A stretch of 64,000 nucleotides of DNA from Desulfuromonas sp. (GTDB lineage: Bacteria > Desulfobacterota > Desulfuromonadia > Desulfuromonadales > BM501). The stretch spans positions 32,041 through 96,040 of the forward strand of contig NZ_PKUB01000044.1 of the NCBI RefSeq assembly GCF_002868845.1. Direction: 5' to 3'. Below the pieces are notes generated by a model, which had not been told where the DNA came from, did no database searches, and saw only the letters and a list, made by a program, of their open reading frames with translations. Below are positions 8,061 through 49,234 of the stretch, piece by piece; the stretch's first letter is position 1; each line of letters starts with the position of its first letter. Position numbers and translations under genes: made by a program.

Positions 8061-9605
8061 TCAGTGCGATGAAGCAGCGATGTCGAGTCTAAGGCCGAAG
8101 GCCTCTTCAAAGAGGTCTCCCTTGCCTCGCCCCCCGAAAACCTCCACGGAAAGATCCCCCTCCCCCTCCACTGCAACGCTGAAGGCTTCCTCCTCGAGAG
8201 CACAGCTCACCCCCTCGACAACCTGGCTGCGGCGCCGGTCGAGTCCGTCGGCCAGGCGAAGAATCCCGCCGAGCCGCTTCACCAGGGTCCGATCTTCGGG
8301 AGAGAGCCCCGCGAAGTTTTCATGGCGCAACCTGGGAAGGGCCTTGCGGTGGTAGCGGGCCAGGTTGGCGACCACCTCCTTTTCCCGCGGGGAAAAGTCG
8401 AACAAGTCGGCGTGGCGGATAAGGTGGTAGGAATGTTTGTGGTGCTTGCTGTAGTTGATGAAATACCCCACGTCGTGGAGAAGGGCGGCCGCCTCCAGCA
8501 TCTGCCCGGAGCGCTTGTCGAGGCCGAAGGGCTCAGCCAGGTGTTTGAAGAGCCTCAAGGCGAGTTTGCGGACCTGCTCGCCGTGGTTCATGTCAACGTG
8601 GCATGACCGGGCGAAATCCCTGATCGAATCGCGCCAGTCCCTGGGGTGCGCGCGACGCTCGATGAGGCCGTGCTTCCAGAGACTCTCCAGGATCAAGCCT
8701 TCCCGGAGGCCCCGCTCATTAACTTTCAAAACATTGCTGCCGAGCCGTCTAATCAGTTCGTTGATGACCGCCACCCCCGCGACGATGATATCGGCCCGTT
8801 CGGGGTTGAGCCCCTGCAGGGCCCTGCGCTCCTTGAAGGTCATGCGCTCCAGCATGGACAGGAGGTGAACGACCTCGGAACGCAACACCTCGTAGCCGTG
8901 CATTGAATCGTAGCGTTCCTCGCGCATTGCCATCGTCATGGCCCCGATGGCCGTGATCGTCCCCCCGGACCCGACCAGGGTCTGAAGCGATGCGTCCGGC
9001 CCCTTGAGGGCCTGTTTGAGGGATTTTCGGAGGTATTTGCGCAGATCTGCAAACTCGCCGCTCGAGATGGGGTCTGTCCGGACGAAGCGCTCGGACAGAT
9101 AGACCGCCCCCAGGTCGAGGGAATGGATCTCTTCGACATGGTTCCCTGCGGAGATGACCACCTCGGCACTGCCGCCGCCGATATCGACCATGGCGTAGCG
9201 CCGGCCGCCCATGTCGAAGTTGTGATAGGCACTCGTCGCCGCCAGCTGGGCCTCTTCCTTCCCGTCGATCACCCGGATGTCCACCCCGGCTTCAGCCTTC
9301 ATGGCCACGATGAACTCCCGGCCGTTGCGCGCCTTGCGCACCGCGCTGGTGGCCACGGCCTCGACGAAGCCGGCCCCGAGGCCTTCAATGATCATGCGCA
9401 TGCGCAGCAGGGCCTCTCTGGCTCTTTCCCAGGCATCAGGGGAGATTGAGCCGCCCGCGAACAGTCCTTCACCGAGGCGGACGGTGGCCTTTTCGTCATC
9501 GAGGATTCGAAAATCGTTGTAGCCCGTCACCTCGACGACGATACAGCGAATCGAGTTGGTGCCGATATCGATGGCGGCAAGCCTCTTTTCAGAACTTGAT
9601 GACAT
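8061..9605 (-). CDS. ppx: Exopolyphosphatase (Ppx/GppA family with HD domain)
   Basis: AIDIGTNSIRCIVVEV and VDIGGGSAEVV are actin-like ATPase motifs. A C-terminal HD region is present (LLHDVGYFINYSKHHKHSYHLI). Confidence 0.9.
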   Translation of the reverse strand: MSSSSEKRLAAIDIGTNSIRCIVVEVTGYNDFRILDDEKATVRLGEGLFAGGSISPDAWERAREALLRMRMIIEGLGAGFVEAVATSAVRKARNGREFIVAMKAEAGVDIRVIDGKEEAQLAATSAYHNFDMGGRRYAMVDIGGGSAEVVISAGNHVEEIHSLDLGAVYLSERFVRTDPISSGEFADLRKYLRKSLKQALKGPDASLQTLVGSGGTITAIGAMTMAMREERYDSMHGYEVLRSEVVHLLSMLERMTFKERRALQGLNPERADIIVAGVAVINELIRRLGSNVLKVNERGLREGLILESLWKHGLIERRAHPRDWRDSIRDFARSCHVDMNHGEQVRKLALRLFKHLAEPFGLDKRSGQMLEAAALLHDVGYFINYSKHHKHSYHLIRHADLFDFSPREKEVVANLARYHRKALPRLRHENFAGLSPEDRTLVKRLGGILRLADGLDRRRSQVVEGVSCALEEEAFSVAVEGEGDLSVEVFGGRGKGDLFEEAFGLRLDIAASSH

Positions 9606-9631
9606 AAATAGAACGTGACAGGCGGCATGGT

Positions 9632-9660
9632 TTAAGAATCTGTTACAATAAAATTATAAT
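9632..9660 (+). promoter_or_regulatory. Candidate sigma70 promoter TTAAGA-N17-TATAAT
   Basis: The -35 element TTAAGA is at 9632-9637 and a perfect TATAAT at 9655-9660. It sits in the AT-rich ppx/ppk divergent region. Confidence 0.3.
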
Positions 9661-9700
9661 TGAGATGGTATGAAAATCCATTCTTATCAAGGTGCTCGTC

Positions 9701-9844
9701 ATGGGGAAATGCTTGAAGGGCAAATCAGAAACCAAGGACAAGTCCGCCAAATACGAATGTCAGAAATGCGGCGCGGAGACGCCCAAAAAAGATCATGTCT
9801 GCAAACCGAAAAAAATCAAAACCGAGAAGAAGGGGAAAAAGTAA
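9701..9844 (+). CDS. Small Lys-rich protein (47 aa) with a CxxC...C motif
   Basis: Own translation: MGKCLKGKSETKDKSAKYECQKCGAETPKKDHVCKPKKIKTEKKGKK. An AAGGTG Shine-Dalgarno lies 8 nt upstream. The ORF is below the track's size cutoff. Confidence 0.4.
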   Translation: MGKCLKGKSETKDKSAKYECQKCGAETPKKDHVCKPKKIKTEKKGKK

Positions 9845-10073
9845 TCGCCCAAAGCCGAGCGCCCACGGTCAGGGCATTTCCCGGTGTCCGGCGGTCGCAT
9901 TGCAAGAAGGAGATTCACCCTTCATTTTCTTTGTTATCCGAGAGCACTCCTCGCTGAAAATGGATTTTTGAAAAGGGCTTTGTTGCCACGGGGAAACCCG
10001 ATTCCAGCGTTCCCCCACCGAAAATCCTCCCTGGTCGGCTGAAGCAGACCAAACCGGGGAAACATCCAGAAGG

Positions 10074-12359
10074 ATGGCAGACCAGATGGAACCGAGCGTC
10101 GAAACCAGAAGCCAGGCCAAGATCCAAAAGGAGACTCTCCCCACAAGCGGGATGACGGGGGAAACGGAGCGCACTGAGGATAAGACGTCTCCTCGAACCG
10201 TGAGGCGCAAGGTCGCCCCGTCCGCTCAGGGACCCTCCCCGCCGAGCCTGGGTTCCGCGGAGATCTTTCTCAACCGGGAATTGACCTGGCTGGCCTTCAA
10301 CGACCGCGTTCTCCACGAAGCCAAAGACCCGCGCAACCCCCTTCTGGAAAGGGTCAAGTTCGCAGCCATCGCCGCGTCCAACCTGGACGAATTCTTCATG
10401 AAACGCATCGGCGGCCTGAAGCAGCAACTGGGCGCGGGGGTGCATGACCGCACTGTCGACGGACGCACGCCGGCAGAACAGATCGCCGAATGCTACGCCT
10501 TCATCCGCAGGCACCAGGAGGAAAAACAGAGGCTGTGGATCGAACTCCAAAAGGAGCTGCAAAACCACCACATCGAGGTCGTCCCCTACCGGGACCTGAC
10601 TAAAGAAGAGGAAGAGGAGATCCGCGAAGATTATTTCCGCAATATCTTTCCCCTCGTCACCCCCCAGTCCATCGACCCCGCCCACCCCTTCCCCTTCGTC
10701 TCCAACCTCTCCCTCAACCTCCTGATTACCCTGCGCTACCCCGAGGACCGGGAGCTTTCCCTGGCCCGGGTCAAGGTTCCGATCATCGCCGGGGCGCCGC
10801 GCTTCGTTCGGATCGGGGAGAAGAACCGCTTCATCCTCCTCGAGGAGGTCATGGGGCACAATCTGGACATGCTTTTCCCCGGCATGGAGATCGTCGCGTG
10901 GGAACTTTTCCGGGTCACCCGCAACGCCAACACCGACAGAAGCGAGGAGCACGCCGACGACCTGCTCGCCCTCATCGAGTCGGCGCTGGTGGAGCGCAAA
11001 TTCGCCCCCATCGTGCGGATGGAGATCATGCCGGAGATGGACCCGACCCACCGCGGACGCCTGGCCGCTGAACTGGGGCTGAACGAGGAAGCCGACGTGT
11101 TCGACATCGAGGGCATGATGGGCATGCGCGACCTGCTCGAACTGGCCGCGCTGGCGCTGCCCAGGCTGAAGGACCCGCCTCATCACCCCATCGACCACCC
11201 GGCCCTGCAGAGCCAGCGCAATCTCTTCCACATCATCCGGGAGGCGGGATCGGTCCTGCTGCAGCATCCCTACGAGGCCTTCTCCTCCTCCGTCGAGCGG
11301 TTCCTCCAGGAGGCAGCCAACGATCCCAAGGTGCGCGCCATCAAGATGACCCTCTACCGCACCTCCAGCAGAAGCCCCATCGTCGACACCCTTATCACGG
11401 CCGCCCAGAACGGCAAACAGGTCGCGGTGGTCGTCGAACTGAAGGCCCGCTTCGACGAGGCGGCCAACATCCGCCTGGCCTCCCGCATCGAGGAGGCGGG
11501 CATCCATGTCACCTACGGGGTCGTCGGCCTGAAGACCCACGCCAAGGTCATCCTCGTGGTGCGCCAGGACTACAACGGCCTGCGCCGCTATGTCCATATC
11601 GGCACCGGGAACTACCATCCAGAGACCGCCCGGGTTTACAGCGACCTCGGTCTGCTGATCTACGACAAGGACATCGGCAGGGACGCCACCGAACTGTTCA
11701 ATTACCTGACCACCGGCTACACCCCCAAGCGAACCTACCGCAAGCTGCTGCCGGCCCCGAAGCACCTGAAGAATGCCCTCCTGGAGAAGATCCAGCGGGA
11801 AATCGACCGGCACGAAGAGAACGGTTCCGGCCATATCCGCTTCAAAATGAACGCCCTGGAGGATGCCGACATCAGCCGGGCTCTCTACCGGGCCTCCCAG
11901 GCGGGGGTCCGGGTCGATCTCATCGTGCGCGACAGCTGCCAGATCCGTCCGCAGGTCCCGGGCCTCTCGGAGAACATCCGGGTCGTCTCGATTCTCGGCC
12001 GCTTCCTGGAGCACGCCCGAATCTACTATTTCCGCAACGGGGGAGAGGAGGAATACCTCATCGGCTCGGCCGACGGCATGAAGCGCAACCTGGAGCACCG
12101 CGTGGAGGTGGTGGTGCCGGTGGAGGCCCCCCTGCTGCGCAGCGACCTGTGGACAATGCTCGAAGCCCAGTGGAACGACGAGCGCGGCGGATGGGAGATG
12201 GGGCCTGACGGAAACTACGCTCAGCGCTCCCCTCGCCCGGAGGCCGACGACCGCAGCTCCCAGGAGATTCTCATCGAACTGGCCCAAAGGCGCAACAAGG
12301 ACGTAACCCGGCTCAAAAAACGCAGGTCCAAGAGTTTCGGACAACGCAACCTGCGCTAG
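10074..12359 (+). CDS. ppk1: Polyphosphate kinase 1
   Basis: FLNRELTWLAFNDRVLHEA, the NLDEFF motif and C-terminal PLD-like HKD-type regions (VGLKTHAKVILVVR, RFLEHARIYYF). The roughly 65-aa N-terminal extension makes the true start uncertain. Confidence 0.9.
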   Translation: MADQMEPSVETRSQAKIQKETLPTSGMTGETERTEDKTSPRTVRRKVAPSAQGPSPPSLGSAEIFLNRELTWLAFNDRVLHEAKDPRNPLLERVKFAAIAASNLDEFFMKRIGGLKQQLGAGVHDRTVDGRTPAEQIAECYAFIRRHQEEKQRLWIELQKELQNHHIEVVPYRDLTKEEEEEIREDYFRNIFPLVTPQSIDPAHPFPFVSNLSLNLLITLRYPEDRELSLARVKVPIIAGAPRFVRIGEKNRFILLEEVMGHNLDMLFPGMEIVAWELFRVTRNANTDRSEEHADDLLALIESALVERKFAPIVRMEIMPEMDPTHRGRLAAELGLNEEADVFDIEGMMGMRDLLELAALALPRLKDPPHHPIDHPALQSQRNLFHIIREAGSVLLQHPYEAFSSSVERFLQEAANDPKVRAIKMTLYRTSSRSPIVDTLITAAQNGKQVAVVVELKARFDEAANIRLASRIEEAGIHVTYGVVGLKTHAKVILVVRQDYNGLRRYVHIGTGNYHPETARVYSDLGLLIYDKDIGRDATELFNYLTTGYTPKRTYRKLLPAPKHLKNALLEKIQREIDRHEENGSGHIRFKMNALEDADISRALYRASQAGVRVDLIVRDSCQIRPQVPGLSENIRVVSILGRFLEHARIYYFRNGGEEEYLIGSADGMKRNLEHRVEVVVPVEAPLLRSDLWTMLEAQWNDERGGWEMGPDGNYAQRSPRPEADDRSSQEILIELAQRRNKDVTRLKKRRSKSFGQRNLR

Positions 12360-12383
12360 GGCTTTCCCAGACCCTATCTATCC

Positions 12384-13352
12384 ATGGATGACGCTGCCCG
12401 CCGATACCCCCTTTCACAGAAAATGCCCGCGGGGCAGGCCCTGCTCCTGATCCTGAGGCGCCTGTTCGAAACCATGGAAGCCAACGAGGCAGGCCTTCGG
12501 GAGGGCCTCGACCCGGAGTCCCTCCACGACTTTAGGGTTGCGGTTCGCCGCACCCGTTGCGCCTTCGGACAGGTCGAAAACGTTCTTCCGGCGCCGGTCC
12601 TCGTCTCCTTTCGCCCACGTTTTGCCTGGCTCGGCCAGGTCACCGGAGCGACCCGGGACATGGACGTCTACCTGCTCCGGTTTTGCGCGTATCGCGACAG
12701 CCTCCCGGAGACGGCGCGGGACGACCTGGAGCCGCTGCACCATTTTCTGCTCCGACAGCAAAAACGGGAGCGGCGCAAAATGCTCCGCAGCCTTGACACC
12801 CGCCGCTACGGGGACCTGCTCCGGGACTGGAAGGCCTTCCTGGAGACCGGCCCCGACCCGGCCGCGTCCCCCCCGGGCGCCGCCCTCCCGGTCCGCGAAA
12901 CGGCCGACGCCCGAATCATCATAGCCTTCCGCAGGGTGATGCGAAAAGGGAAGGCCATCGACATCGATTCGCCCGCGTCGGCTCTCCACGAATTGCGCAT
13001 CGCCTGCAAAAAACTGCGCTACCTGGTGGAGTTCTTCCAGAGCCTTTACCCCCCCGGTCGAATCCGGAAAGCGATCCGCGACCTGAAGATCCTCCAGGAC
13101 AGCCTTGGCAGCTTCCAGGACCTTCAGGTCCAGACCGATTCCCTGCGCCGGTTCGCCGCCCAGATGGCCGATGAGGGGCCCGTCCCGGCGAAGACCCTGC
13201 TGGCCATGGGAATGCTCATCGGCGACCTGCATCGCCACCAGGGTCGCACGCGGGAAGAGTTTGGCGAAAGGTTCGACAAATTTTCCCGAAAGCCGAACCG
13301 GCGCATCTGGACGCAAACCTTCCGGTCCACAGGAGAGAAAAATGGGGGTTGA
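12384..13352 (+). CDS. CHAD domain protein
   Basis: LHDFRVAVRRTRCAF and LHELRIACKKLRYLVEFF are typical CHAD helices. Confidence 0.85.
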   Translation: MDDAARRYPLSQKMPAGQALLLILRRLFETMEANEAGLREGLDPESLHDFRVAVRRTRCAFGQVENVLPAPVLVSFRPRFAWLGQVTGATRDMDVYLLRFCAYRDSLPETARDDLEPLHHFLLRQQKRERRKMLRSLDTRRYGDLLRDWKAFLETGPDPAASPPGAALPVRETADARIIIAFRRVMRKGKAIDIDSPASALHELRIACKKLRYLVEFFQSLYPPGRIRKAIRDLKILQDSLGSFQDLQVQTDSLRRFAAQMADEGPVPAKTLLAMGMLIGDLHRHQGRTREEFGERFDKFSRKPNRRIWTQTFRSTGEKNGG

Positions 13353-13824
13353 GATCGAGAGGAAATTCCTGGTTCGGGGAGATGCGTGGAGAGCCGGCGC
13401 CGAAGGAATCCCGGTTCGCCAGGGCTACCTGAGCGTCGACCCGCCGCGCGCGGTGCGGGTCCGCCAGACGGGGAAAAGGGGTTTTCTCACCATCAAGGGG
13501 AAAACCGAGGGGATCAGCCGGACCGAATTCGAGTATCCCATCCCCCTGGAAGACGCCGAGGAACTGCTGGAGCACCTCTGCCTGCGGCCTCTCATCGAGA
13601 AGGTCCGTTACCGGGTGCCCCATGCCGGCCTGCTCTGGGAAGTCGACGAGTTTCTCGGCGAAAACACGGGCTTGATTCTCGCAGAAGTCGAGCTGGAGAG
13701 CGCCGCCCAGGAGGTCCCCCTGCCGCCATGGGCCGGCCGCGAAGTCTCCGAAGACCCCCGCTACTTCAACGCCGCACTGGCCCGGCACCCTTTCACAGAC
13801 TGGGAGGCGAAGGGCGAGCCCTGA
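13342..13824 (+). CDS. CYTH-domain protein (triphosphate tunnel metalloenzyme)
   Basis: MGVEIERKFLV carries the ExExK signature. The start overlaps the CHAD stop by 11 nt. Confidence 0.85.
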   Translation: MGVEIERKFLVRGDAWRAGAEGIPVRQGYLSVDPPRAVRVRQTGKRGFLTIKGKTEGISRTEFEYPIPLEDAEELLEHLCLRPLIEKVRYRVPHAGLLWEVDEFLGENTGLILAEVELESAAQEVPLPPWAGREVSEDPRYFNAALARHPFTDWEAKGEP

Positions 13825-13852
13825 GCGCCGAGGGCATCTCTGGATGCGACGG

Positions 13853-14626
13853 TTAATCGTCGACCTTTCCCCTTTTTTCCCCCTTCACCTCCAGCGCCTC
13901 GGCGGCATGGCAGGCCGCACCGATAATTCCGGCCTGGTTGCGCTGCTGGGCGGGAACCACCCGCGCCCGGACCTTGAAGGCGGGAAAGAACCGGTCGTGC
14001 TTCCGGCTGACGCCCCCCCCAATGATGAACAGGTCGGGCCAGAGCAGATCCTCCATCTTCCCCAGGAACCTGCCAAGCCGCCGGCCCCACTTCTCCCAGC
14101 TCAGCTCCTCCTCTTCCCGGACCCCGGCGGAGGCGTACTTCTCGGCGGCACCGCCCTTCATGGGGAAATGCCCGAATTCCGTGTTGGGAAAAAGAACTCC
14201 CCCTGAAAAAAGGGCCGATCCGAGACCGGTCCCGACGGTCACCACCATCACCACCCCGACCTCCCCCCGGCCCGCCCCGAAGCGCATCTCGGCGATCCCG
14301 GCGGCATCGGCGTCATTGAGGACCCGGCATGGACAGCCGGTGGCCGCGCTCAGGGCCGCCGCAACGTTGTTGCCGATCCAGGCCGAATCGATGTTGGCGG
14401 CGGTCAGGGCGATCCCGTCACGGATGACCGCCGGAAAGCCGCAGCCGATCGGCCCCTGCAAGGAGAACCGGCCCGCCAGGTCGCGTACGGCCTTTGCCAC
14501 AGCCCGGGGCGTCGAGGGAGCGGGTGTCGGAATGCGAACCCGCTCCGAAACGAGCTCCCCCCGAGTCACATCGACCAGGGCCCCCTTGATGCCGCTGCCG
14601 CCGATGTCGATGCCGAGCACATGCAT
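13853..14626 (-). CDS. ppgK: ROK-family polyphosphate glucokinase
   Basis: [19 protein letters not shown]..., at 257 aa, with ROK-type motifs. Confidence 0.85.
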
Positions 14627-15269: not shown

Positions 15270-15622
15270 TCCGGGGTCCCGGCCTCCCTCCAGCGCCAGG
15301 AAACGCCTCCCCCAATTACTCCGTGCCCACCATCGGAATGACCCGTACGACCTTGCCTGCGGAAAATCTTTCGATTCCCCCCCCAAGGAACGTGAACCTT
15401 GCAATGGGATTCAGTCGAGTGCTAGTATTAAAAATCTTCTTAAGCCGCCGCCGAGAAACAGGAATATACTTCCCCGACAAGGCGGGAGCAGACCGCCGAC
15501 ATCACACCGGGGCTATTGCCACCAAGAGATGGCGAGGCCTGGTCCGGACGCAAAGAAGATTGGTGCCTGATATCGTTCCTTCCCGTTAACCCCTGTCCGG
15601 ATTCTCCCTTCTCAACGCCGTC

Positions 15623-16576
15623 ATGTTTGACCAAACCGTCCTAAATTACACCAAAGGCAACGACTGCCTGCAAACCCGGGTTAGGCATCCTCGAACAGTT
15701 ATGCCGAACTTCGCCTTTTATTGCGACTGGATTATCTGGGACGAGGATAACATTTTCGTTGACGAACCAAGGCAACCGAGAATTATCTACGTGAGAAGTG
15801 AAATCACTGCCTTGAACTTCTTCAAAGAGAACGTCCTGAGCAGGTTGAACAGAGACTTCGTGCTGGTAACGACGTGCCACGACACCCCCATGCCGCTCGG
15901 CTTCGAAAAGTTTTTCGACTTCCGGTGGAAGGACATAATAAGCAATCGCCACCTGAGGGCCTGGTTCACGGAGAACCTGGACCTTGTCCACGAGAAGATC
16001 AGACCGATCCCCCTCGGGATTCCTTTTCCCGACCTGCCGTCGTGGCTCGCCGGCACCAACTCGTCCACGGTCTGGACGGACGATTTTGCGGCGCTGGCCG
16101 ATTCATGGAAGCACGCCTCCCGAATCCCCAAAATCTTCGGCTGCTGGTACCCGCGGGTGAACCACCACAGCGGGACCTGCCCCGAGGAGGACAACGAAAG
16201 GCAAAACGCCTACGACACCTTCATCAACAGGAAAGAGTTGTTCGACTGGCATGAACCGGGCATGGACCGAAACAACTTCATAGCCGCCATGGGGAGGTAC
16301 CGCTTTGTCCTGTGTCCCCACGGAGGGGGACTGGATCCGAACCCCAAGTGCTGGGAGGCCCTGATCATGGGCGCCATCCCCATCGTGCGGAGGAACAGCA
16401 TGTCCGAGGCCCTGGAGCACCTCCCCCTCGTCGTGGTCGACGAGTGGACCGAGATCACCCGGGAGATGCTGGATCATTGGGAGGCCCGGCATGCCCCTGC
16501 GTTGGAGGCGGAAAACCTCAGGCACCTGATGTCCAACGAATACTTTTACCGGAAAATGGAGGCCTGCCTCGATTAG
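15623..16576 (+). CDS. Exostosin (GT47)-like putative glycosyltransferase
   Basis: The C-terminal RYRFVLCPHGGGLDPNPKCWEALIMGAIPIV resembles the exostosin FCLCPxG...EAlxxGCIPV motif. The function call is tentative. Confidence 0.5.
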   Translation: MFDQTVLNYTKGNDCLQTRVRHPRTVMPNFAFYCDWIIWDEDNIFVDEPRQPRIIYVRSEITALNFFKENVLSRLNRDFVLVTTCHDTPMPLGFEKFFDFRWKDIISNRHLRAWFTENLDLVHEKIRPIPLGIPFPDLPSWLAGTNSSTVWTDDFAALADSWKHASRIPKIFGCWYPRVNHHSGTCPEEDNERQNAYDTFINRKELFDWHEPGMDRNNFIAAMGRYRFVLCPHGGGLDPNPKCWEALIMGAIPIVRRNSMSEALEHLPLVVVDEWTEITREMLDHWEARHAPALEAENLRHLMSNEYFYRKMEACLD

Positions 16577-16624
16577 ACGGCACCCTCCTTGGTCCAATTG
16601 CCCTCTTGGAATTGCCAACAGCCC

Positions 16625-17422
16625 ATGAAAAGACGCCTCAGATTTTCCGCCGCAAGTTACGGCCCCCTTGCCGACAACCAACCCCACCGGTTTGCCATGG
16701 AGAGGGCCCTCAGGATATATCGCTCCAATGCGATATACAGCTTCATCCCCAAAAACGCCTGTTCGACCATGAGGCTCTCACTGGCGCTTGAAAACGGGTG
16801 CATCGACGACGTTCGGGACTACGAGTGTATCCACGAAAACAACAAGACCTTCGCCTCTGACCTCGATCACCTGATAACGGCCAACTATTCGTTCGTCATA
16901 CTGAGATGTCCTTTTGCGCGCCTGGCCAGCGTTTATCTGGACAAGGTGGTGGGCCGTGAACCCGCCGGGCACAAGTTCGCCAGAATGGCAGGGGAACAGG
17001 GCGGGGTTGAAGAGGTGACCTTCGACGCGTTCGTCAGGGCGATGCGCAACCCCGAGGTCAAACGGGGGAACGTGCACTGGAGACCGCAAGGCGACTTCCT
17101 GGTTTACAAGGAATACGACGATTATTTCTCAGTCGAGGAATTCCCCCGTGCCGTCAGAACGCTCAGGGCAAAAATCGACCTGCACATTCATGACGCGCGG
17201 GGATTGACTAATCACGGCCTCGACAAGCACGAGTTGGTCGACGGGGATGATTTCTCCGCCCTTTCGGCCGAAACCATACGGGCCATGAAACATTCGGGAC
17301 GCTCTCCGAGGCCCCGGTGCCTCTACAACGACGAGTTGCACTCCATCGTTAACGAGGCGTACGCCGAGGACATCGCCCTCTATATCGACCTGTTCGGCCC
17401 GAAGAGTCTCATGTTCGCCTGA
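16625..17422 (+). CDS. Sulfotransferase family 2-like protein (ST1)
   Basis: 5'-PSB-like FIPKNACSTMR, 3'-PB-like ILRCPFARLASVYLDKV, and HWRPQ. An alternative TTG start exists at 16589. Confidence 0.7.
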   Translation: MKRRLRFSAASYGPLADNQPHRFAMERALRIYRSNAIYSFIPKNACSTMRLSLALENGCIDDVRDYECIHENNKTFASDLDHLITANYSFVILRCPFARLASVYLDKVVGREPAGHKFARMAGEQGGVEEVTFDAFVRAMRNPEVKRGNVHWRPQGDFLVYKEYDDYFSVEEFPRAVRTLRAKIDLHIHDARGLTNHGLDKHELVDGDDFSALSAETIRAMKHSGRSPRPRCLYNDELHSIVNEAYAEDIALYIDLFGPKSLMFA

Positions 17423-17513
17423 GGAGTGGTTCGCGGAGAGACCGGGACCGAACAACCCGAAACACCTCGCATGGCGGTTTCATCAACGGAGACGATACAA
17501 AGGGGAAGTGGCG

Positions 17514-18125
17514 GTGATCATCTCTCACAAGCACAAATTCATTTTCATAAAAACGGCAAAGACGGCGGGAACGTCGATAGAAGTTTTTCTCTCCCGCCAT
17601 TGCGGTCTGGAGGATGTCCTGACCCCCATTTTTCCCCATGTAGAGCCCCACGTTGCCAGGAATTATGAGGAAAAGGAATTTTTCAACCATATCCCGGCAG
17701 CAGATATCAAAAAAAAGGTGTCAAGGGAGATATGGAACAATTACTTCAAGTTCTGTGTTGAACGAAACCCCTGGGACAAGACGCTGTCCCACTACCATAT
17801 GCTTAGATTCAGGGCAGAAAACAACTTGTCGCTGGATGAATATTTCGAAAAGGGCCAATTCTGCTTCAACTACCCAAAATACACGGACAACTCTGGAAGT
17901 GTCATTGTAGACCGAATTGTCAAATACGAGAATCTATCCGAAGAACTTGCCTATATTTTCAGAAGACTGAACATCCCTTTCGAGGGTTCTCTAGGCGTGA
18001 AGGCCAAATCGGAGTACAGGACCGACAGAAGACACTACAAAGAAATATTGTCAACTGAACAGGCGGAGATCATCTCCAAGGCCTTTTCAAGAGAGATTGA
18101 ATTGTTCGGATATTCCTTTCAATAA
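17514..18125 (+). CDS. Sulfotransferase family protein (ST2)
   Basis: IISHKHKFIFIKTAKTAGTSIEVFLS, and VERNPWDKTLSHYHM. The start is either GTG 17508 or GTG 17514; 17514 has better spacing from the AGGGGA Shine-Dalgarno. Confidence 0.8.
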   Translation: MIISHKHKFIFIKTAKTAGTSIEVFLSRHCGLEDVLTPIFPHVEPHVARNYEEKEFFNHIPAADIKKKVSREIWNNYFKFCVERNPWDKTLSHYHMLRFRAENNLSLDEYFEKGQFCFNYPKYTDNSGSVIVDRIVKYENLSEELAYIFRRLNIPFEGSLGVKAKSEYRTDRRHYKEILSTEQAEIISKAFSREIELFGYSFQ

Positions 18126-18187
18126 AGCCTCAACAGGCAATAGGAGATGAATTAGTTATTACTTGGCTATGGCACTGCAAAAAAACA

Positions 18188-18826
18188 ATGACTATTCCGG
18201 AGCGATTGTTCAACACGCCGGAAACCGCAGTCCTATTTATCAAGCCAATTTTATATTCAATTTGGAGGCAGATCATGGAAGATATATTGAATTCGGCAAC
18301 CCCCCTGATATCGGCACTTCGCAATTCAGTAGCCGTCGACCAGAATTGGCCCGCCTTTCGAAAGCTCATCGAAAACAATCTTGAAGATATCGTCAGTACT
18401 TTTTCCATCCGCTGGCTGGTGTCCGTCTGCGACACATATGCAGATTATGGCTCTGGGGAACAAAAACGAAATGCGCTTTTGATTTCAATGTTTGTAAACA
18501 TGCTCCGCATGGCCGATACCGCTTTTTTCGTATCTTCTGGCATTGACGAAGAAAACCTGGAAAAGACCAACGATCGGCTCGTCATGCAATACGATGGTGT
18601 CGCCACCTTTGCAATCAACCGGCAGGACGTCTTCCTCAACCTGTCAAAGCGCACTATGAGAGCGACCAAGAATGATCCGGTGTTCGGAAAAATATGGAAA
18701 GAAATTATTAGTCGCATCCACAATTACGACAACGCCATCACCAAATTCAAGTCGATGTCAAAGGTGCCGCACCGGTACTTTCCGCTTAACGCCACAGAAA
18801 TGCCTGACAACTATGGTGTTGTTTGA
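18188..18826 (+). CDS. Hypothetical protein, predicted mostly helical, with no recognisable motif
   Basis: 212-aa ORF co-oriented inside the island. An alternative start MEDILNS exists at 18275. Confidence 0.5.
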   Translation: MTIPERLFNTPETAVLFIKPILYSIWRQIMEDILNSATPLISALRNSVAVDQNWPAFRKLIENNLEDIVSTFSIRWLVSVCDTYADYGSGEQKRNALLISMFVNMLRMADTAFFVSSGIDEENLEKTNDRLVMQYDGVATFAINRQDVFLNLSKRTMRATKNDPVFGKIWKEIISRIHNYDNAITKFKSMSKVPHRYFPLNATEMPDNYGVV

Positions 18827-18953
18827 GGGTGACCATCTGATGCTCCGTAACTTTCAAGCCTCTTTTTTATAAATTCACATTGAATTTTTGATTTTAATTT
18901 GAATAGACATTGACTTGCTGAACACAGTAAAGGCTTTTACCTAACAACTGGAG

Positions 18954-19544
18954 TTGATCTTGCCGGCACTATTAATAAACAAACCACGGTGCGTTTTCTG
19001 TCGCATAATGAAAACAGGGTCTACCTCAATTTTCAGAGGCCTTCTTGGAGGGCAGAAAAACGTAATAGGAAGAAGCTTTGGTGATTTCCCAAGAGAGTGG
19101 GAAAGTCTACCCAGTTTTGCGATAGTAAGAAACCCCTTCGACAGGTTCCTCTCAGCCTGGCATATGTTTAAGACCTACGATGTTAGGACACCAAAAGAGG
19201 AAACATTTAGGGCCAATCTCACCGTTAACGATATTCTAGAAGCAATCGCTGATCGGAGCATTCCCCTTAACGAGAATAACTACATATCCAAACTCCGCCT
19301 ACACTTCGCACCCATGACCCACCCAGTTCATTCCGTCTCCAAGGCAAAGCATATCGGTAGGTTTGAGTCATATGAAAAAGCCTTTAGAGACATAGAATCT
19401 TTGTTGGGGTTTGAAACTGGCCCCGTCCATCACAAAAGAAAAACCACCCCTAGAAATTACCGAGAAGTCATCGACCCTGAGTTGAGGGCGAAGATTGAGG
19501 CCGTATATGCAGAGGACCTAGAAACTTTTGGCTACTCTTGGTAG
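18954..19544 (+). CDS. Sulfotransferase family protein (ST3)
   Basis: CVFCRIMKTGSTSIFRGL, and AIVRNPFDRFLSAWHMF. The gene has a TTG start. Confidence 0.75.
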   Translation: MILPALLINKPRCVFCRIMKTGSTSIFRGLLGGQKNVIGRSFGDFPREWESLPSFAIVRNPFDRFLSAWHMFKTYDVRTPKEETFRANLTVNDILEAIADRSIPLNENNYISKLRLHFAPMTHPVHSVSKAKHIGRFESYEKAFRDIESLLGFETGPVHHKRKTTPRNYREVIDPELRAKIEAVYAEDLETFGYSW

Positions 19545-19747
19545 CCGGGAACTCATAGTCAACAGATAATAAAAGGATCGTGCTCCCGTCATGGGAAGCT
19601 TACGAGCCCAATTGAGTTAGTCGGTTAACGGTTCCCCCTTCGGTGCCTTCTGGTGTAGGGAGGGACATCGCCAGGGGATTCCGTTGTCCCCTCTGGCAAC
19701 TCACCACATTAAAGACTGACCACGCCCCAAAAAAGTTCAATTGAAAG

Positions 19748-20335
19748 ATGTCTAACTTTTTACTGAAAGACATTAATAGCGTCTTTATACATATTCCCAA
19801 AACAGCGGGAACCTCCATTCGAAGCGGGTTTTTTAAAAACAATTATTCAGGCCCTGAGTTCGGTAGAATTCCAAAAGAATGGGAAGGGCTTTTCAAATTC
19901 GCTTTCGTCCGAAACCCGTTTGAGCGTCTCATCAGCGCATGGTTCATGTTTGTAAGTGGAACAAGTCAGCTAGACGCCACCGACTACCCCAAGTACAACT
20001 TGAAACAATTTCTTGAAATTGTTATGGATGAATCGATTATTTATGACGAAAGAAGAAAAACAGTGAAAGAAAGAATTAGACATCACACCATCCCTCTAAC
20101 ACATCCGTTCAATTGTCTTCATCTGGCAGACTTCGTTGGGCGCTACGAAAACCTGGATGAAGATTTTCGGCATATTTGCAAAGCGGTCTCCTACCCCTAC
20201 AAGCCGCTTCCCAAACGCCATTTTTCAGAGCACTTGCATTATTCAACCTACTACGACGATAAAACACGCAGCATGGCTGAGGACTTCTACTCTGAAGACC
20301 TTAGGCGTCTGGATTATAGCTTCGAAAGGCAATAA
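19748..20335 (+). CDS. Sulfotransferase family protein (ST4)
   Basis: SVFIHIPKTAGTSIRSGF, and AFVRNPFERLISAWFMF. Confidence 0.85.
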   Translation: MSNFLLKDINSVFIHIPKTAGTSIRSGFFKNNYSGPEFGRIPKEWEGLFKFAFVRNPFERLISAWFMFVSGTSQLDATDYPKYNLKQFLEIVMDESIIYDERRKTVKERIRHHTIPLTHPFNCLHLADFVGRYENLDEDFRHICKAVSYPYKPLPKRHFSEHLHYSTYYDDKTRSMAEDFYSEDLRRLDYSFERQ

Positions 20336-20607
20336 CCAATGTGGGGCACATTCGGAGCAGTTCAGAGACAAAGTTTATTCACTTGCAACTTGAATCTTGT
20401 GTGCATTGAAAAACATTAAAACTGATATTATACCCCCCGAACACCTAGGGGTTCTGGTTTCGATTCCCACCTCTCTCCATTTTCATTTGCAACTTCAATA
20501 TGTCATGGGTAGTTTGTATTGCATAGGCAATTCTGCTGTAAATTCAATTCTTTTTTTACTAGGCAAACAATCGCTAAAAGATAAACTAGAAAAAATAGGT
20601 ATGAAAT

Positions 20608-21657
20608 ATGAAAAATCCTTACGATAATTTACCAGAAAGATTTATTTGGAAATCTTCTGTTGCAAATAAAAGCATGTTTGACATATCTGAACTTTGGGAC
20701 CCTAAATTTCACATCAAGCAGAATCAACACATCGTGACTTTTGGCTCTTGTTTTGCTCAGCATATTGGTAACGCTATGAAACAAAGAGGCTTCAAGTGGC
20801 TAAGCACTGAAAACCCACCATATGGTTTGAGCGAAACGAATTGTAAAGCATTCAACTACAACATCTTTTCTGCAAGAACAGGAAACATCTACACCACTAC
20901 CCTTTTAAAGCAATGGACAGAGTGGGCCTTAGGCATAAAAGATGTACCTGATGAAATCTGGGAAAAAGAGGGGAGGTTTTTTGACCCATTTAGGCCAAGA
21001 ATTGAACCTAATGGATTTGCTTCCCAAGAAGAGGTAGGTAGCTCTCTTGATCAAACAATTTCCTCGTTCAGGGAGGCTATTAAAAAATCACACTATTTCG
21101 TTTTCACATTAGGACTAACTGAGAGTTGGGTGAACTCGGACCTGGGTTACGAATACCCTATGTGTCCTGGCACTGCGGCAGGTAAGTTTGATGACATAAG
21201 GCATAAATTCGTAAATCAGCAATTTAATCAGGTCATCTCTGCCTTAGGCAAGTCCATGGAGATGATGAGAGAGGTGAATTCTGATCTAAAATTTATCCTG
21301 ACAGTGTCTCCTGTTCCTTTGATGGCTACTAATTCGAATCAGCACGTACTTGTTGCGACGATGGCCTCAAAATCGATCTTAAGAGCGGTAACCAGCCAGT
21401 TAGTAGCTAACCGAGGCTATGTAGATTACTTCCCTGCATACGAGATCATCAATAGTCCTGTGTTCAAGGGGGCCTTCTTTGAGCCAAATCAACGAAGCGT
21501 GAATCCGTATGGTGTGAGTTTTGTTATGGATAACTTCTTTAAATGCCTTGTTGATAAGTTTGGTGACCTTCACAAGAAGACAAAACAGACGCCTCCCATA
21601 GTCAAAAAGTCGGATGAGGTTTGTGAGGAAGAGTTGTTGGAGGCTTTTTGTAAATGA
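20608..21657 (+). CDS. GSCFA-family protein (SGNH-like clan)
   Basis: The eponymous motif is present in VTFGSCFAQHIGN near the N-terminus. Length is 349 aa. Confidence 0.8.
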   Translation: MKNPYDNLPERFIWKSSVANKSMFDISELWDPKFHIKQNQHIVTFGSCFAQHIGNAMKQRGFKWLSTENPPYGLSETNCKAFNYNIFSARTGNIYTTTLLKQWTEWALGIKDVPDEIWEKEGRFFDPFRPRIEPNGFASQEEVGSSLDQTISSFREAIKKSHYFVFTLGLTESWVNSDLGYEYPMCPGTAAGKFDDIRHKFVNQQFNQVISALGKSMEMMREVNSDLKFILTVSPVPLMATNSNQHVLVATMASKSILRAVTSQLVANRGYVDYFPAYEIINSPVFKGAFFEPNQRSVNPYGVSFVMDNFFKCLVDKFGDLHKKTKQTPPIVKKSDEVCEEELLEAFCK

Positions 21658-22379
21658 AAGTGTGTATTATAGGAAATAGTCACACCGGAGCTTTAAAAAG
21701 AGCTTGGGATACGTTTTTTGATTCGAATTTCAAAAATATCTTTGATCTTACTTTTTTTGCTAGCAGAGCACAAAGGCTGGAGGGGTTAAAGATTGAGGGG
21801 ACTAAGCTGATTCCCCAAAACGAGTATTTAAAAGAAAATTTAAAGTTTACATCAGGCGGCAAACCATATGTCGACTTGAGTTTGTATGATGTTTTTCTTG
21901 TTTATGGTTTAAGTACTAGGCCATACTTCTTAAGTAAGGTCTTTTATTCCGAAGCTGTCCTTATAAAGTCTATTGAAGACAATCATACGAGTTCATTGTC
22001 GTTTAAAATATTAACCATGATTCGCGATGTTGTTGATACGAAAACATTTATAGGTCACGATCCGTTGCGAGTCAACAAAGATAGAGATGGTATTGAATTT
22101 GATAAGGTATTAACGGAGCAGTACAGCCTTGGCATCTCTCTGGTTAATGAGAGTCTGTTTTTTCCACTTGGAGCGGAGTTGCTAGAGCAGCCTCAGCAAA
22201 CAATTGTTGGAAAAGGGAGAAACACACATTCTATTTACTCGAAAGGCTCTAAACGTTTAGATGTTGGTGATGAAAAAGATGGTGAGCTTCACCCGGAGAG
22301 TGACAATAGGCATATGAACGACGAGTTCGGAAAAATATGGCTGGAATCGTTTCTGGGTAGGCTTAAATCTGAATTATAA
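21654..22379 (+). CDS. Hypothetical protein with an N-terminal IIGNSHTGA (SGNH block-I-like) motif
   Basis: The start overlaps the GSCFA stop in an ATGA overlap. Length is 241 aa. Confidence 0.55.
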   Translation: MKVCIIGNSHTGALKRAWDTFFDSNFKNIFDLTFFASRAQRLEGLKIEGTKLIPQNEYLKENLKFTSGGKPYVDLSLYDVFLVYGLSTRPYFLSKVFYSEAVLIKSIEDNHTSSLSFKILTMIRDVVDTKTFIGHDPLRVNKDRDGIEFDKVLTEQYSLGISLVNESLFFPLGAELLEQPQQTIVGKGRNTHSIYSKGSKRLDVGDEKDGELHPESDNRHMNDEFGKIWLESFLGRLKSEL

Positions 22380-22523
22380 TCACCCGCGGGTGGCGGGGGT
22401 CTTGCCTTACCACTCAGCGCATAGATTTCAATATCTCAGCATCTTTCAATTAAGCCTCGGGGAGGTTCGCCAAAAAGCCCGGGTAAGACCCTCTCTATTT
22501 CGCCTTAACGACACCCCCCAGCC

Positions 22524-30801: not shown

Positions 30802-31109
30802 GCCGGCAATTTCATTCCACATCCTCCCGGTTAGCCAGCCCCTGTTCCTCGGAACTGGCCAGCAGACGCACCAGCCGTCGGCCCGTTTCGAACTCCCAAT
30901 CGAAGCAGACAGGTAACACAGCTTATGATGGGTCGGACGCGAGTTCACTGCAACCGCACGAAATATCTTCGAGAAAAAGCCGGGAAAGATGTGATTCTCT
31001 CCCGGCTTTGAGCGTCTGTGCGGTGAATACAGGGAGAAAAGGGGCAAGCTTTTGGCACCAGCAAACTGGGAGTTTCAGATCGGCCGCAAAACAGCCGGAA
31101 TCGTAGTCC

Positions 31110-31646
31110 TCAAGGCGCGGGTAGTTTTTCCAAGTATCCGTTCAGCACCACCCTTACCTCGTCACTCAAAGACGTGGCATCGGCTGGCCATTCCACTGTC
31201 AAATAGGCGTCCCCATTCGTATCCAAAATGTCATCGATTGCGCAGGCCGTCCTGAAATGAAAGGATTGCTGAGAAACAGTACCATCGTCCGCAGCACACC
31301 ATTGGTTAACAAAGGGAGGAAAAACCAAGGTCATGCGACTTCTCCCTTGGCTATCTCTTTTCGCTATAAAAATCGAAGCAGGTGGCGACGGGGACAAAGA
31401 ATTAGCGTGCTTCATCAAAAGCCCCGATACGCTCTGGATTATGAATCGGTATCCCGATGGTACGGTTATAGGTGTGCTGGTAATATCATAGGGGACTCCC
31501 GAGCTAGGAGCGGCTTGCAGTTGAATGCAGTGGGGGGTAGCGCCCGCACTAGACGAGGAAAAGGAATTTTTGGCCCCCGCATCCAACACCCAGGGACCGG
31601 CCGACAGGGCCAACAACGCCAGCGAAAACACCAATAATTTTTTCAT
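31110..31646 (-). CDS. Small secreted hypothetical protein
   Basis: The internal start MKKLLVFSLALLALSAGPWVLDA looks like a signal peptide and has a GGAGAAAAAG Shine-Dalgarno. It lies in a locally lower-GC patch. Confidence 0.5.
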   Translation of the reverse strand: MKKLLVFSLALLALSAGPWVLDAGAKNSFSSSSAGATPHCIQLQAAPSSGVPYDITSTPITVPSGYRFIIQSVSGLLMKHANSLSPSPPASIFIAKRDSQGRSRMTLVFPPFVNQWCAADDGTVSQQSFHFRTACAIDDILDTNGDAYLTVEWPADATSLSDEVRVVLNGYLEKLPAP

Positions 31647-32059
31647 CTTTTTCTCCTTTCGCGAAATCAGAAATTTTTTCAATTGACACCAACCCCCTCG
31701 CCCCAAACTCCCTGGCTTGACAAACTCTCATCCTCAAGCCATCCACCGATTCCATGGTTCTCGGCCACAGGGTTCCATAGCCTCGTTTTCCCAATCCACC
31801 TGCCGTCTCTGGATTTCCCTACTTTCCTTGCATGGCTGTCCCTGTCCGCACGACGCAAAACAGTCTCCCGGACGCCTTTGAGCAGGCACTTTCGAACAGG
31901 TATATCAACATTCAACCAATTGTAAACAAGCTCTAACATTAACCACAAAACCCGACCACATCACTCTTCAAATTGCCTACGGAACATGCGCCGCCCATAC
32001 GAAAAAAGGAGCCTGAAACAACTCCAGCTCCCAACTATCAAGCATTTGAGGTTTTGGCA

Positions 32060-49215: not shown

Positions 49216-49234
49216 GGTGCACCCTTCCCTGGGA

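Follow-up and report, generated by a model that had tools for sequence, protein, structure and literature searches.

What are four sulfotransferases, a glycosyltransferase and two esterase-like proteins doing side by side between two ordinary genes of a Desulfuromonas genome? The question is raised by a 64-kb stretch of DNA (the whole stretch that was analyzed, referred to here as the window), which lies on a 162-kb contig from an uncultured Desulfuromonas sp. (ENA ERZ794998 NODE_58). In this window, the region of ~7 kb between a SixA-like phosphatase gene and hypF contains eight intact, co-oriented open reading frames (ORFs) on the + strand, designated here g1 to g8 and collectively called the island. 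The corresponding NCBI proteins (PLX82829-PLX82835, locus tags C0617_13230-13265) all carry the label "hypothetical protein." Eight co-oriented genes had been proposed in an earlier sequence-only reading of this DNA, and they were confirmed at the positions given there; gene calling on the public contig independently yielded the same eight genes. Besides the proteins already mentioned, they encode one protein of an uncharacterized family.

The reading favored here is that the island is a horizontally acquired accessory set of soluble cytoplasmic enzymes that tailors a saccharide built elsewhere in the genome, and we give this reading about an even chance of being correct. It is favored because a glycosyltransferase, four sulfotransferases, two SGNH-type proteins, and a protein with a domain that is fused to tailoring enzymes elsewhere (g4) occur together, and all of them are predicted to be soluble, with membrane segments predicted in none of the eight. 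The features of the island are as follows.

15270-15622, no strand: left junction, intergenic, 3' of the SixA-like gene; G+C in 100-nt steps falls from 0.64 to 0.51-0.57 from 15300
15623-16576, + strand: g1, GT114-like (A075L-like) GT-B glycosyltransferase, 317 aa, by profile and fold match to A075L
16589-17422, + strand: g2, Sulfotransfer_2 enzyme, 277 aa, partner of g1, by Pfam and PAPS motifs
17508-18125, + strand: g3, short Sulfotransfer_2 enzyme, 205 aa, by Pfam and PAPS motifs
18275-18826 (ORF opens at 18188), + strand: g4, protein with an uncharacterized domain, 183 aa, from a family of 401 relatives
18960-19544, + strand: g5, short Sulfotransfer_2 enzyme, 194-196 aa, by Pfam and PAPS motifs
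19748-20335, + strand: g6, short Sulfotransfer_2 enzyme, 195 aa, paralogue of g5, by Pfam and PAPS motifs
20608-21657, + strand: g7, GSCFA-family protein (SGNH clan), 349 aa, by Pfam GSCFA
21654-22379, + strand: g8, putative divergent SGNH-like partner of the GSCFA protein, 241 aa, by motifs and a weak fold match
22380-22523, no strand: right junction, intergenic, before the 3' end of hypF; G+C rises from 0.47 to 0.68 between 22400 and 22500

Only 13 nt separate g1 from g2, and the start of g8 overlaps the stop of g7 by 4 nt. A search of NCBIfam found no match for any of the eight proteins.

The Four Sulfotransferases

On their sequence scores, g2, g3, g5, and g6 are members of Pfam Sulfotransfer_2 (PF03567), reaching 42.5 (E=1.1e-10), 39.8, 55.7, and 51.5 bits, respectively, against a cut-off of 22 bits; the alignment of g5 spans model positions 11-252. 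Sulfotransfer_2 includes the animal heparan sulfate 2-O-, chondroitin, and HNK-1 sulfotransferases. The two motifs for 3'-phosphoadenosine 5'-phosphosulfate (PAPS) are found in all four proteins and are mutually aligned, with 5'-phosphosulfate-binding (5'-PSB) strings IPKNACST (g2), KTAKTAGTS (g3), MKTGSTS (g5), and IPKTAGTS (g6), and 3'-phosphate-binding (3'-PB) strings RCPFARLAS (g2), ERNPWDKTLS (g3), VRNPFDRFLS (g5), and VRNPFERLIS (g6). These eight strings had been quoted exactly in the sequence-only reading, and its identification of four sulfotransferases bearing both PAPS signatures is upheld by the Pfam scores. Its description of the four as paralogous was overstated. Only g5 and g6 are close paralogues (33% identity, E=6e-32), g3 is a more distant relative of both (23%), and BLASTP detected no similarity of g2 to g3, g5, or g6.

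The start of g2 deserves comment, as a long TTG start (16589, 277 aa) is favored over the called start at 16697 (241 aa) because the 56%-identical homologue in two related loci (L093/L094) aligns from residue 4. The island enzymes resemble PF03567 carbohydrate sulfotransferases in that all four lie above the cut-off of the hidden Markov model (HMM) and carry PAPS motifs of the K-T-[AG]-x-T-S and R-N-P-x-x-R-x-x-S types. They differ from them in that three of the four are unusually short (195-205 aa) and that all four are devoid of a membrane anchor.

A GT114-Like Glycosyltransferase

The first gene of the island had been described as exostosin-like. The Exostosin model of Pfam (PF03016) gave no match to g1 at E<=0.1, and the sole direct Pfam match was a weak one to RXYLT1_C (E=0.04, 13.8 bits vs a cut-off of 27). 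A profile of 25 members of the g1 family matched the structures of A075L (8q8i/8avq/8asa) with E=8e-24 over residues 104-315. A075L from PBCV-1 (Paramecium bursaria chlorella virus 1) is a cytosolic, metal-independent, inverting β-xylosyltransferase with key residues Asp73, Arg158, and Arg208, which acts on an oligosaccharide acceptor to build the protein N-glycan core of the chlorovirus capsid protein; it was once annotated as an exostosin and is now the founding member of CAZy family GT114 (PMC11571054). The earlier description was therefore right in spirit, while the term GT114-like is more precise.

Structure prediction points the same way. The AlphaFold2 (AF2) model of g1 has a mean predicted local distance difference test (pLDDT) score of 89.6, and its best Foldseek matches are A075L chains (E=2e-12, template modeling [TM] score 0.55-0.67); generic GT-B enzymes, WaaG, PimA, and BshA among them, come next. 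Both similarity to GT114 sequences and a GT-B fold are thus found for g1. In the HMM alignment of the two proteins, Arg158 of A075L corresponds to R193 of g1, which is invariant, Arg208 to K242, which is K or R among relatives, and Glu211 to E245. Residues D87 and R193 and a CPHGGG-x-D loop are invariant throughout the g1 alignment, including relatives from giant viruses. We infer that D87 is the equivalent of the A075L residue Asp73, as it follows the matching β-strand, in a part of the protein outside the coverage of the HMM alignment.

Taken together, g1 shares with A075L profile-level sequence similarity, the GT-B fold, a predicted soluble cytosolic nature, the Arg that binds the phosphate of uridine diphosphate (UDP) (R193), the ribose-binding Glu (E245), the G-x-G-x-D loop, and an invariant Asp where the catalytic base is expected. 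It differs in that identity is just 20-23%, the second phosphate-binding Arg is replaced by Lys (K242), and the N-terminal region is 40 residues longer. A further difference lies in the setting: g1 is bacterial and is accompanied by sulfotransferases in every context seen, whereas A075L is not so accompanied.

The g1 family is rare, consisting of 27 clusters, all metagenomic. In all four readable contexts, a sulfotransferase is encoded within a few genes of the g1 homologue; in one of them (L092) the contig carries at least six sulfotransferase genes, together with methyltransferase and GT2 genes. Homologues also support a length of 317 aa for g1, so that the public start, which gives 228-238 aa in the NCBI call, is apparently placed too late. 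Relatives with 26-29% identity are common in metagenome assemblies of Nucleocytoviricota (IMG/VR contigs L178-L198), and this bacterial, sulfotransferase-linked glycosyltransferase family thus has an ancestry in common with the GT114-type enzymes of giant viruses.

The GSCFA Protein and Its Partner

The identification of g7 as a GSCFA protein, made already from the letters of the sequence, is upheld: its score with Pfam GSCFA (PF08885) is 163.4 bits (cut-off 25), the match spans positions 2-237 of the 237 in the model, and in the GSCFA alignment it keeps the invariant GSCF, GLTE, and SPVP motifs, N294/R296, and the C-terminal CEE.LL.AF tail. GSCFA is a family of the SGNH clan with over 1,200 members, whose activity and structure are not known (PMC9487903). 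The acidic tail C-E-E-x-L-L-x-A-F (g7 residues 339-347) ends all of the aligned GSCFA proteins, following a variable and often basic linker, and might serve to dock a partner protein. The best homologue of g7 (70% identity, locus L083) adjoins an IS66 transposase gene. Searches of solved structures by sequence returned no relative of g7, of the g8 family, or of the g4 family.

The neighboring protein, g8, had been singled out in the sequence-only reading by its IIGNSH motif and grouped with the SGNH-like proteins. It has no Pfam match itself, and its family is rare, with 60 clusters from Halomonas/Vreelandella, Marinobacter, Verrucomicrobiota, and marine metagenomes. Residues G7, S9, H10, T66, S67, D79, Q179, T183, H220, M221, and N222 are invariant. 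The N-terminal G-x-S-H is among the invariant elements, and H220 lies within a C-terminal D-N-R-H (D-x-x-H-M-N) in which Asp is present in most members, so that g8 contains motifs of both SGNH block I (G-x-S) and block V (D-x-x-H). The fold agrees less strongly. Although the AF2 model is of high quality (pLDDT 96.8), its best Foldseek matches, GDSL/SGNH esterases, are weak (E=1e-3 to 4e-2, TM 0.35-0.44; E=1e-3 and TM 0.38-0.44 at the top of the list) and are interleaved with WrbA/flavodoxin structures. Sub-threshold matches to PF19040, "SGNH fused to AT3," occurred in 7 of 36 g8 relatives (best E=0.0014), and no other family recurred. The proposal that this is an SGNH-like protein is thus sustained by its motifs, while the fold and PF19040 matches are weak only; g8 is plausibly SGNH-like by motif, and weakly so by predicted fold. 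A common origin of g7 and g8 was considered and set aside, as hhalign found no relationship.

What distinguishes the two proteins is their constancy as a pair, which exceeds even that of g1 and g2. Among close g8 homologues with enough upstream sequence, 31 of 33 are immediately preceded by a GSCFA gene in the same orientation, and a 4-nt start/stop overlap is the commonest spacing among the paired loci (27 cases). More distant g8-like partners accompany GSCFA on pSymB of Sinorhizobium meliloti Rm41 (hhalign 99.8%) and on a plasmid of Octadecabacter temperatus (hhalign 90%). To our knowledge, this near-obligatory pairing has not been described so far. The pair is found with genes for a KpsM/T-like ABC transporter, Poly_export, and Capsule_synth (KpsC/S-family) in a metagenome-assembled genome of Verrucomicrobiota; with a Capsule_synth (KpsC/S-family) gene and a sulfotransferase gene in locus L089; in Vreelandella titanicae, in the company of giant glycosyltransferases, two sulfotransferases, and a UDP-sugar dehydrogenase; and with glycosyltransferases on a Paracoccus plasmid. 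The link of the pair to polysaccharide loci is frequent, not obligatory. Sulfotransferases were also considered as constant neighbors of the pair; they are present in some loci, but account for only 2 of 95 neighboring ORFs in 13 further loci.

Two of the distant pairs have arrangements of their own. On S. meliloti Rm41 pSymB (NC_018701.1, ~1.04 Mb; L199 8998-12603), an unannotated GSCFA gene overlaps the g8-like gene and the pair adjoins a divergent KpsC/KpsS-family (Capsule_synth) gene, with similar matches on other Sinorhizobium pSymB-type replicons. On Octadecabacter temperatus plasmid OSB_p1 (L177 6263-8927), an overlapping trio encodes a distant g8-like "hypothetical" protein, GSCFA, and a sulfotransferase; the g8-like partner lies upstream, not downstream, of GSCFA, and the trio has rfbABCD on one side and a rhamnan-synthesis gene on the other, an ABC transporter being encoded nearby.

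The nearest known systems are carbohydrate O-acyl transferases and esterases of the SGNH superfamily, especially those whose SGNH domain is joined to an AT3 acyltransferase (PF19040; OafA/OatA type; PMC9487903). The likeness lies in the membership of g7 in an SGNH-clan family and, for g8, in the G-x-S-H and D-x-x-H motifs and the GDSL/SGNH enzymes as best fold matches. Unlike the AT3-fused enzymes, g7 and g8 are predicted to be cytoplasmic, and the island has no AT3 or MBOAT membrane partner; unlike SGNH enzymes, no D-x-x-H motif is evident among the conserved GSCFA columns.

An Uncharacterized Domain in g4

The remaining protein, g4, has no match in Pfam, NCBIfam, or PDB, and belongs to a large family. 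At E<=1e-3 it has 401 relatives (~400 clusters at 50% identity), all aligned from about residue 30-40 of the 212-aa ORF, and translation probably starts at M30, giving a protein of 183 aa. Its conserved motifs are RW..S.CDTYAD.G and GD...N...R. Fusions elsewhere combine the domain with polysaccharide pyruvyl transferase, with methyltransferases, with a radical-SAM/TPR protein, and with GT1 plus Sulfotransfer_3; in locus L172 the neighbors of the g4 homologue encode a methyltransferase, a pyruvyl transferase, a sulfotransferase, and a sulfatase.

Modular Build, Composition, and Origin

As read from its genes and their relatives, the island is pieced together from three or more portable modules. 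Module 1 (g1 and g2) consists of the GT114-like GT-B glycosyltransferase and its own sulfotransferase; the adjacent pair is kept in L093/L094 (59% and 56% identity), where another Sulfotransfer_2 gene follows. Module 2 (g3-g6) comprises three short Sulfotransfer_2 enzymes around the g4 domain, and module 3 (g7 and g8) is the tightly and translationally coupled pair of GSCFA and SGNH-like proteins.

Outside the island, 500-nt windows have a mean G+C of 0.643 (sd 0.046, minimum 0.47), with the lowest values in other short dips (0.47-0.51) at ~9400-9700, 31000-31700, and 57000. From 17500 to 22400 the mean is 0.422 (range 0.356-0.484), ~4.8 sd below the rest and unbroken over 4.9 kb, while 15580-17500, which contains g1 and g2, is only mildly depressed at 0.578. 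The edges are sharp, as G+C drops from ~15300 and recovers within 100 nt at 22500. G+C at third codon positions (GC3) declines monotonically from g1 to g8 (0.79, 0.73, 0.57, 0.56, 0.49, 0.46, 0.43, 0.36), compared with 0.80-0.94 in flanking genes. The atypical composition that marks integrative genomic islands is therefore present here (G+C 0.42 vs 0.64 +/- 0.05; GC3 0.36-0.57 vs 0.80-0.94). The windowed G+C and per-gene GC3 thus bear out the atypical composition for which the sequence-only reading had called for a check, and its low-G+C cassette stands for 17.5-22.4 kb; g1 and g2 fall outside the 37-47% range that it gave.

The hallmarks of mobility are a different matter. No tRNA gene was found in a scan of the window, Rfam gave no match inside the island at E<=1, and flanking direct or inverted repeats were limited to chance-length matches, with none shared by the left and right junctions. 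Pfam revealed no recombinase, integrase, or transposase domain in the island, and there is no integrase remnant at the left junction. Thus, an integrase or transposase, a tRNA target, and flanking direct repeats, the hallmarks of a mobile island, are all missing from it. Horizontal acquisition is nonetheless favored because the composition is atypical and the parts are patchily distributed. Relatives of the island modules adjoin an IS66 transposase gene, or sit on elements with ParB/SSB or integrase/relaxase genes, and these mobile-element settings, together with the stepwise GC3 gradient, argue against a single uniform cassette and for repeated acquisition or a donor that was itself composite. 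The single cassette of the sequence-only reading accordingly gives way to a mosaic of separately traveling modules. Its proposal of a foreign origin fits both the composition and the mobile settings of the homologues. In a comparison aimed at the sixA-hypF junction, relatives among the matches listed in the HypF genome scan had at most 62% identity (Desulfuromonas sp. BM304, Geopsychrobacteraceae), and none of the 80 loci compared, again among the matches listed for HypF, had even one flanking gene in common with the window. Stepwise assembly of the island, as part of the favored reading as a whole, has the same roughly even standing.

The g6-g7 gap contains a 24-mer, GGTTTCGATTCCCACCTCTCTCCA (20456-20479), that looks like the 3' part of a tRNA, with T-arm, acceptor, and CCA end; on either side of it, at 20378-20395 and 20482-20499, lies a copy of an imperfect 18-nt direct repeat, TTCAYTTGCAACTTSAAT. 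By its sequence and its place at a module boundary, this stretch could be the scar of an old att site. Its tRNA identity was not confirmed by ARAGORN (even at a 70% threshold) or Rfam, the 24-mer is absent from every other locus compared, and no tRNA genes adjoin the related modules.

What the Island May Do

In the favored reading, the backbone, the export machinery, and the PAPS supply would be encoded elsewhere in the genome. The putative inverting GT-B enzyme g1 would use a UDP-sugar to attach a branch sugar, the four sulfotransferases, which are divergent, would O-sulfate different hydroxyls with PAPS as donor, and the g7/g8 pair would add or remove O-acyl esters, all of this tailoring occurring on the cytoplasmic side and being followed by export. 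Capsules and O-antigens that depend on ABC transporters are likewise completed on the cytoplasmic side, ahead of their export. A polymer of this sort is favored because the g7-g8 pair recurs in ABC-transporter-type capsule and O-antigen loci. The analysis shows the families and folds, the motifs, the modular layout, the gene contexts, the unusual composition, and the absence of predicted membrane segments, whereas the enzyme activities, the acceptor, the PAPS supply, and the link to a surface polysaccharide are inferred. The multi-site sulfation with possible ester remodeling that the sequence-only reading suggested would be part of such tailoring.

Partner functions were sought in a Pfam scan of window ORFs of at least 200 aa, which covered nearly all of them, leaving out a few alternative-frame ORFs of that size as well as short ORFs. 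The scan found no backbone glycosyltransferase, polymerase, flippase, exporter, KpsC/S, PAPS-synthesis gene, or integrase, and the observation in the sequence-only reading that a polymerase, flippase, exporter, PAPS-synthesis gene, and integrase were missing is borne out among the ORFs scanned. Several points thus weigh against the tailoring reading. The supposed acceptor pathway is unseen, as no backbone, export, or PAPS gene turned up among the scanned ORFs of the 64-kb window. None of the families present has a biochemically characterized bacterial member close to the island proteins, and no solved structure was related by sequence to the sulfotransferases (g2 and g5 were searched). In the 13 further metagenomic loci of the GSCFA pair, glycan genes were the commonest neighbors and housekeeping genes were also frequent. 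Finally, intergenic gaps of 130-270 nt separate g4, g5, g6, and g7, and promoter and terminator scans found sites no more numerous than in shuffled sequence, so that co-expression of the genes is no more than possible.

With one glycosyltransferase, four sulfotransferases, and no polymerization or export gene found among the scanned ORFs, the island might instead be a self-contained route to a small sulfated metabolite or glycolipid. In such a route, g1 would glycosylate a lipid, polyol, or secondary metabolite and the four sulfotransferases would polysulfate the product, so that no polymerase or dedicated exporter would be needed. The predicted solubility of all eight proteins agrees with this, and so do a natural-product-like setting of one g4 homologue (L174), beside Lant_dehydr_C, ABC-transporter, and peptidase genes, the location of GSCFA genes near nonribosomal peptide synthetase genes on Streptomyces plasmids, and the mention of GSCFA in papers on detoxin-type clusters. 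We consider this route unlikely, however, for polysaccharide genes (Capsule_synth, KpsMT-like transporters, rfb genes, glycosyltransferases, and pyruvyl transferase) recur beside the g7-g8 pair, g1 relatives, and the g4 domain, the island has no scaffold-forming enzyme (polyketide synthase, nonribosomal peptide synthetase, or terpene synthase), and A075L, the closest characterized relative of g1, uses an oligosaccharide acceptor (PMC11571054). That A075L is cytosolic and builds a protein N-glycan core (PMC11571054) raises a further alternative, in which the glycan tailored is linked to protein. Here g1 would work in the cytosol, where all island proteins are predicted to reside, and extend a glycan carried by a protein such as flagellin, pilin, an S-layer protein, or a cytochrome of the outer surface, which the sulfotransferases would then sulfate. 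In L093/L094, moreover, the block formed by g1 and two sulfotransferase genes adjoins genes for TPR/GT41/SEC-C/methyltransferase giant proteins, GT41 being a family of protein O-linked N-acetylglucosamine transferases. Yet the window Pfam scans found no target protein, oligosaccharyltransferase, or flagellar or pilin gene near the island, the contexts of g7-g8 indicate capsules or O-antigens over glycoproteins, and at 20-23% identity between g1 and A075L the type of acceptor is not transferable, which makes this alternative improbable.

The least credence is given to the view that the island is inert cargo, made of fragments captured one by one from larger polysaccharide loci and by now neither expressed nor useful. 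The mosaic make-up and its GC3 gradient, long intergenic gaps, a scrap resembling a tRNA 3' end in the g6-g7 gap (not confirmed by ARAGORN/Rfam), and the lack of partner genes among the window ORFs scanned and of enriched promoter signals speak for this view. It is opposed by the state of the genes themselves: all eight ORFs are intact and full-length compared with their homologues, every catalytic or cofactor motif checked is kept, the coupled pairs g1/g2 and g7/g8 retain their tight spacing, and the same genes are present in two independent assemblies. An anti-phage defense island was also considered and rejected, as PADLOC gave a single weak and meaningless match.

The tailoring reading, which remains preferred, allows a bolder extension that we regard as a long shot. 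GSCFA and its g8-like partner would form an unrecognized two-protein, cytoplasmic SGNH-type machine that acylates or deacylates glycans or their lipid anchors and has spread, across many phyla, through loci for capsules and O-antigens; in this metal-respiring Desulfuromonas, with the GT114-like transferase, the g4 domain, and four sulfotransferases, it would help to make a hypersulfated surface glycoconjugate new to Desulfuromonadales.

The Island in Its Window

The genes around the island are ordinary for the order, encoding Ppx, PPK, CHAD, and CYTH proteins, a ROK protein, the SixA-like histidine phosphatase, and HypF. The left flank is a His_Phos_1/SixA-like gene that scores under the TIGR00249 cut-off, and the right flank is hypF (785 bits). 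Further genes of the window encode a sigma-54 response regulator, TPR/FG-GAP proteins, and multiheme cytochromes. Upstream of the island, a compact polyphosphate set occupies 8061-13856, with Ppx/GppA on the - strand followed by PPK, CHAD, and CYTH proteins on the + strand. A variant riboswitch aptamer for cyclic di-GMP (c-di-GMP-I-GGC) is present at 1013-1095 on the - strand (65.3 bits vs an Rfam gathering score of 59); a quick ORF listing showed no convincing - strand ORF downstream. The segment at 46369-52788 encodes a 948-aa multiheme cytochrome with a β-propeller (Cytochrome_C554, C7, YNCE-like), near which lies a 635-aa protein with the middle domain of the hydrazine-synthase alpha subunit (HZS_alpha, E=3e-26). 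This redox machinery looks unusual for Desulfuromonas.

Significance

Sulfated glycans, rare in bacteria, are in demand as heparin-like biomaterials and for their use in binding metals and minerals. As a compact set, four distinct soluble sulfotransferases and a GT114-like transferase are candidate enzymes for regio-specific sulfation, and the island offers a first functional context for three families, namely GSCFA, the g4 domain, and bacterial GT114-like enzymes. In the subfamily surveyed, GSCFA is hardly ever found without its g8-like SGNH-type partner, and Vreelandella titanicae, Octadecabacter temperatus, and S. meliloti Rm41 (on pSymB) are among the tractable organisms in which the pair occurs. 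The main value of the locus lies in these three uncharacterized but widespread components and in the near-obligatory pairing of GSCFA with its partner, not in a new principle. To Desulfuromonas itself the island adds an accessory trait, and it has no bearing on a long-standing open question.

Comparison With Known Sulfated-Polysaccharide Loci

The kind of system to which the island belongs is known; it looks like an accessory set for sulfation in which several parts are uncharacterized. Complete clusters for sulfated polysaccharides carry genes for nucleotide-sugar synthesis, several glycosyltransferases, KpsMTED or Wzx/Wzy, KpsSC, and cysDN/cysC/cysQ (PMC11766843), and examples include the capsular polysaccharide cluster of Cobetia marina KMM 1449 (PMC11766843) and the synechan xss cluster of Synechocystis (PMC8205485). 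Export, initiating and backbone glycosyltransferases, and PAPS synthesis are encoded within a complete sulfated capsule or exopolysaccharide locus, and none of this set turned up in the island or among the other large ORFs scanned in the 64-kb window. Unlike the Cobetia marina and synechan clusters, it contains tailoring enzymes only, and its ratio of sulfotransferase to glycosyltransferase genes is much higher (4:1). Like them, it joins glycosyltransferase and sulfotransferase genes in an accessory locus of atypical composition, and relatives of its g7-g8 pair occur with KpsMT-like transporters, KpsC/S-family genes, and sulfotransferases, as in sulfated capsule clusters. The island therefore stands outside the class of complete sulfated-polysaccharide loci, though it probably works like the tailoring sections of such loci.

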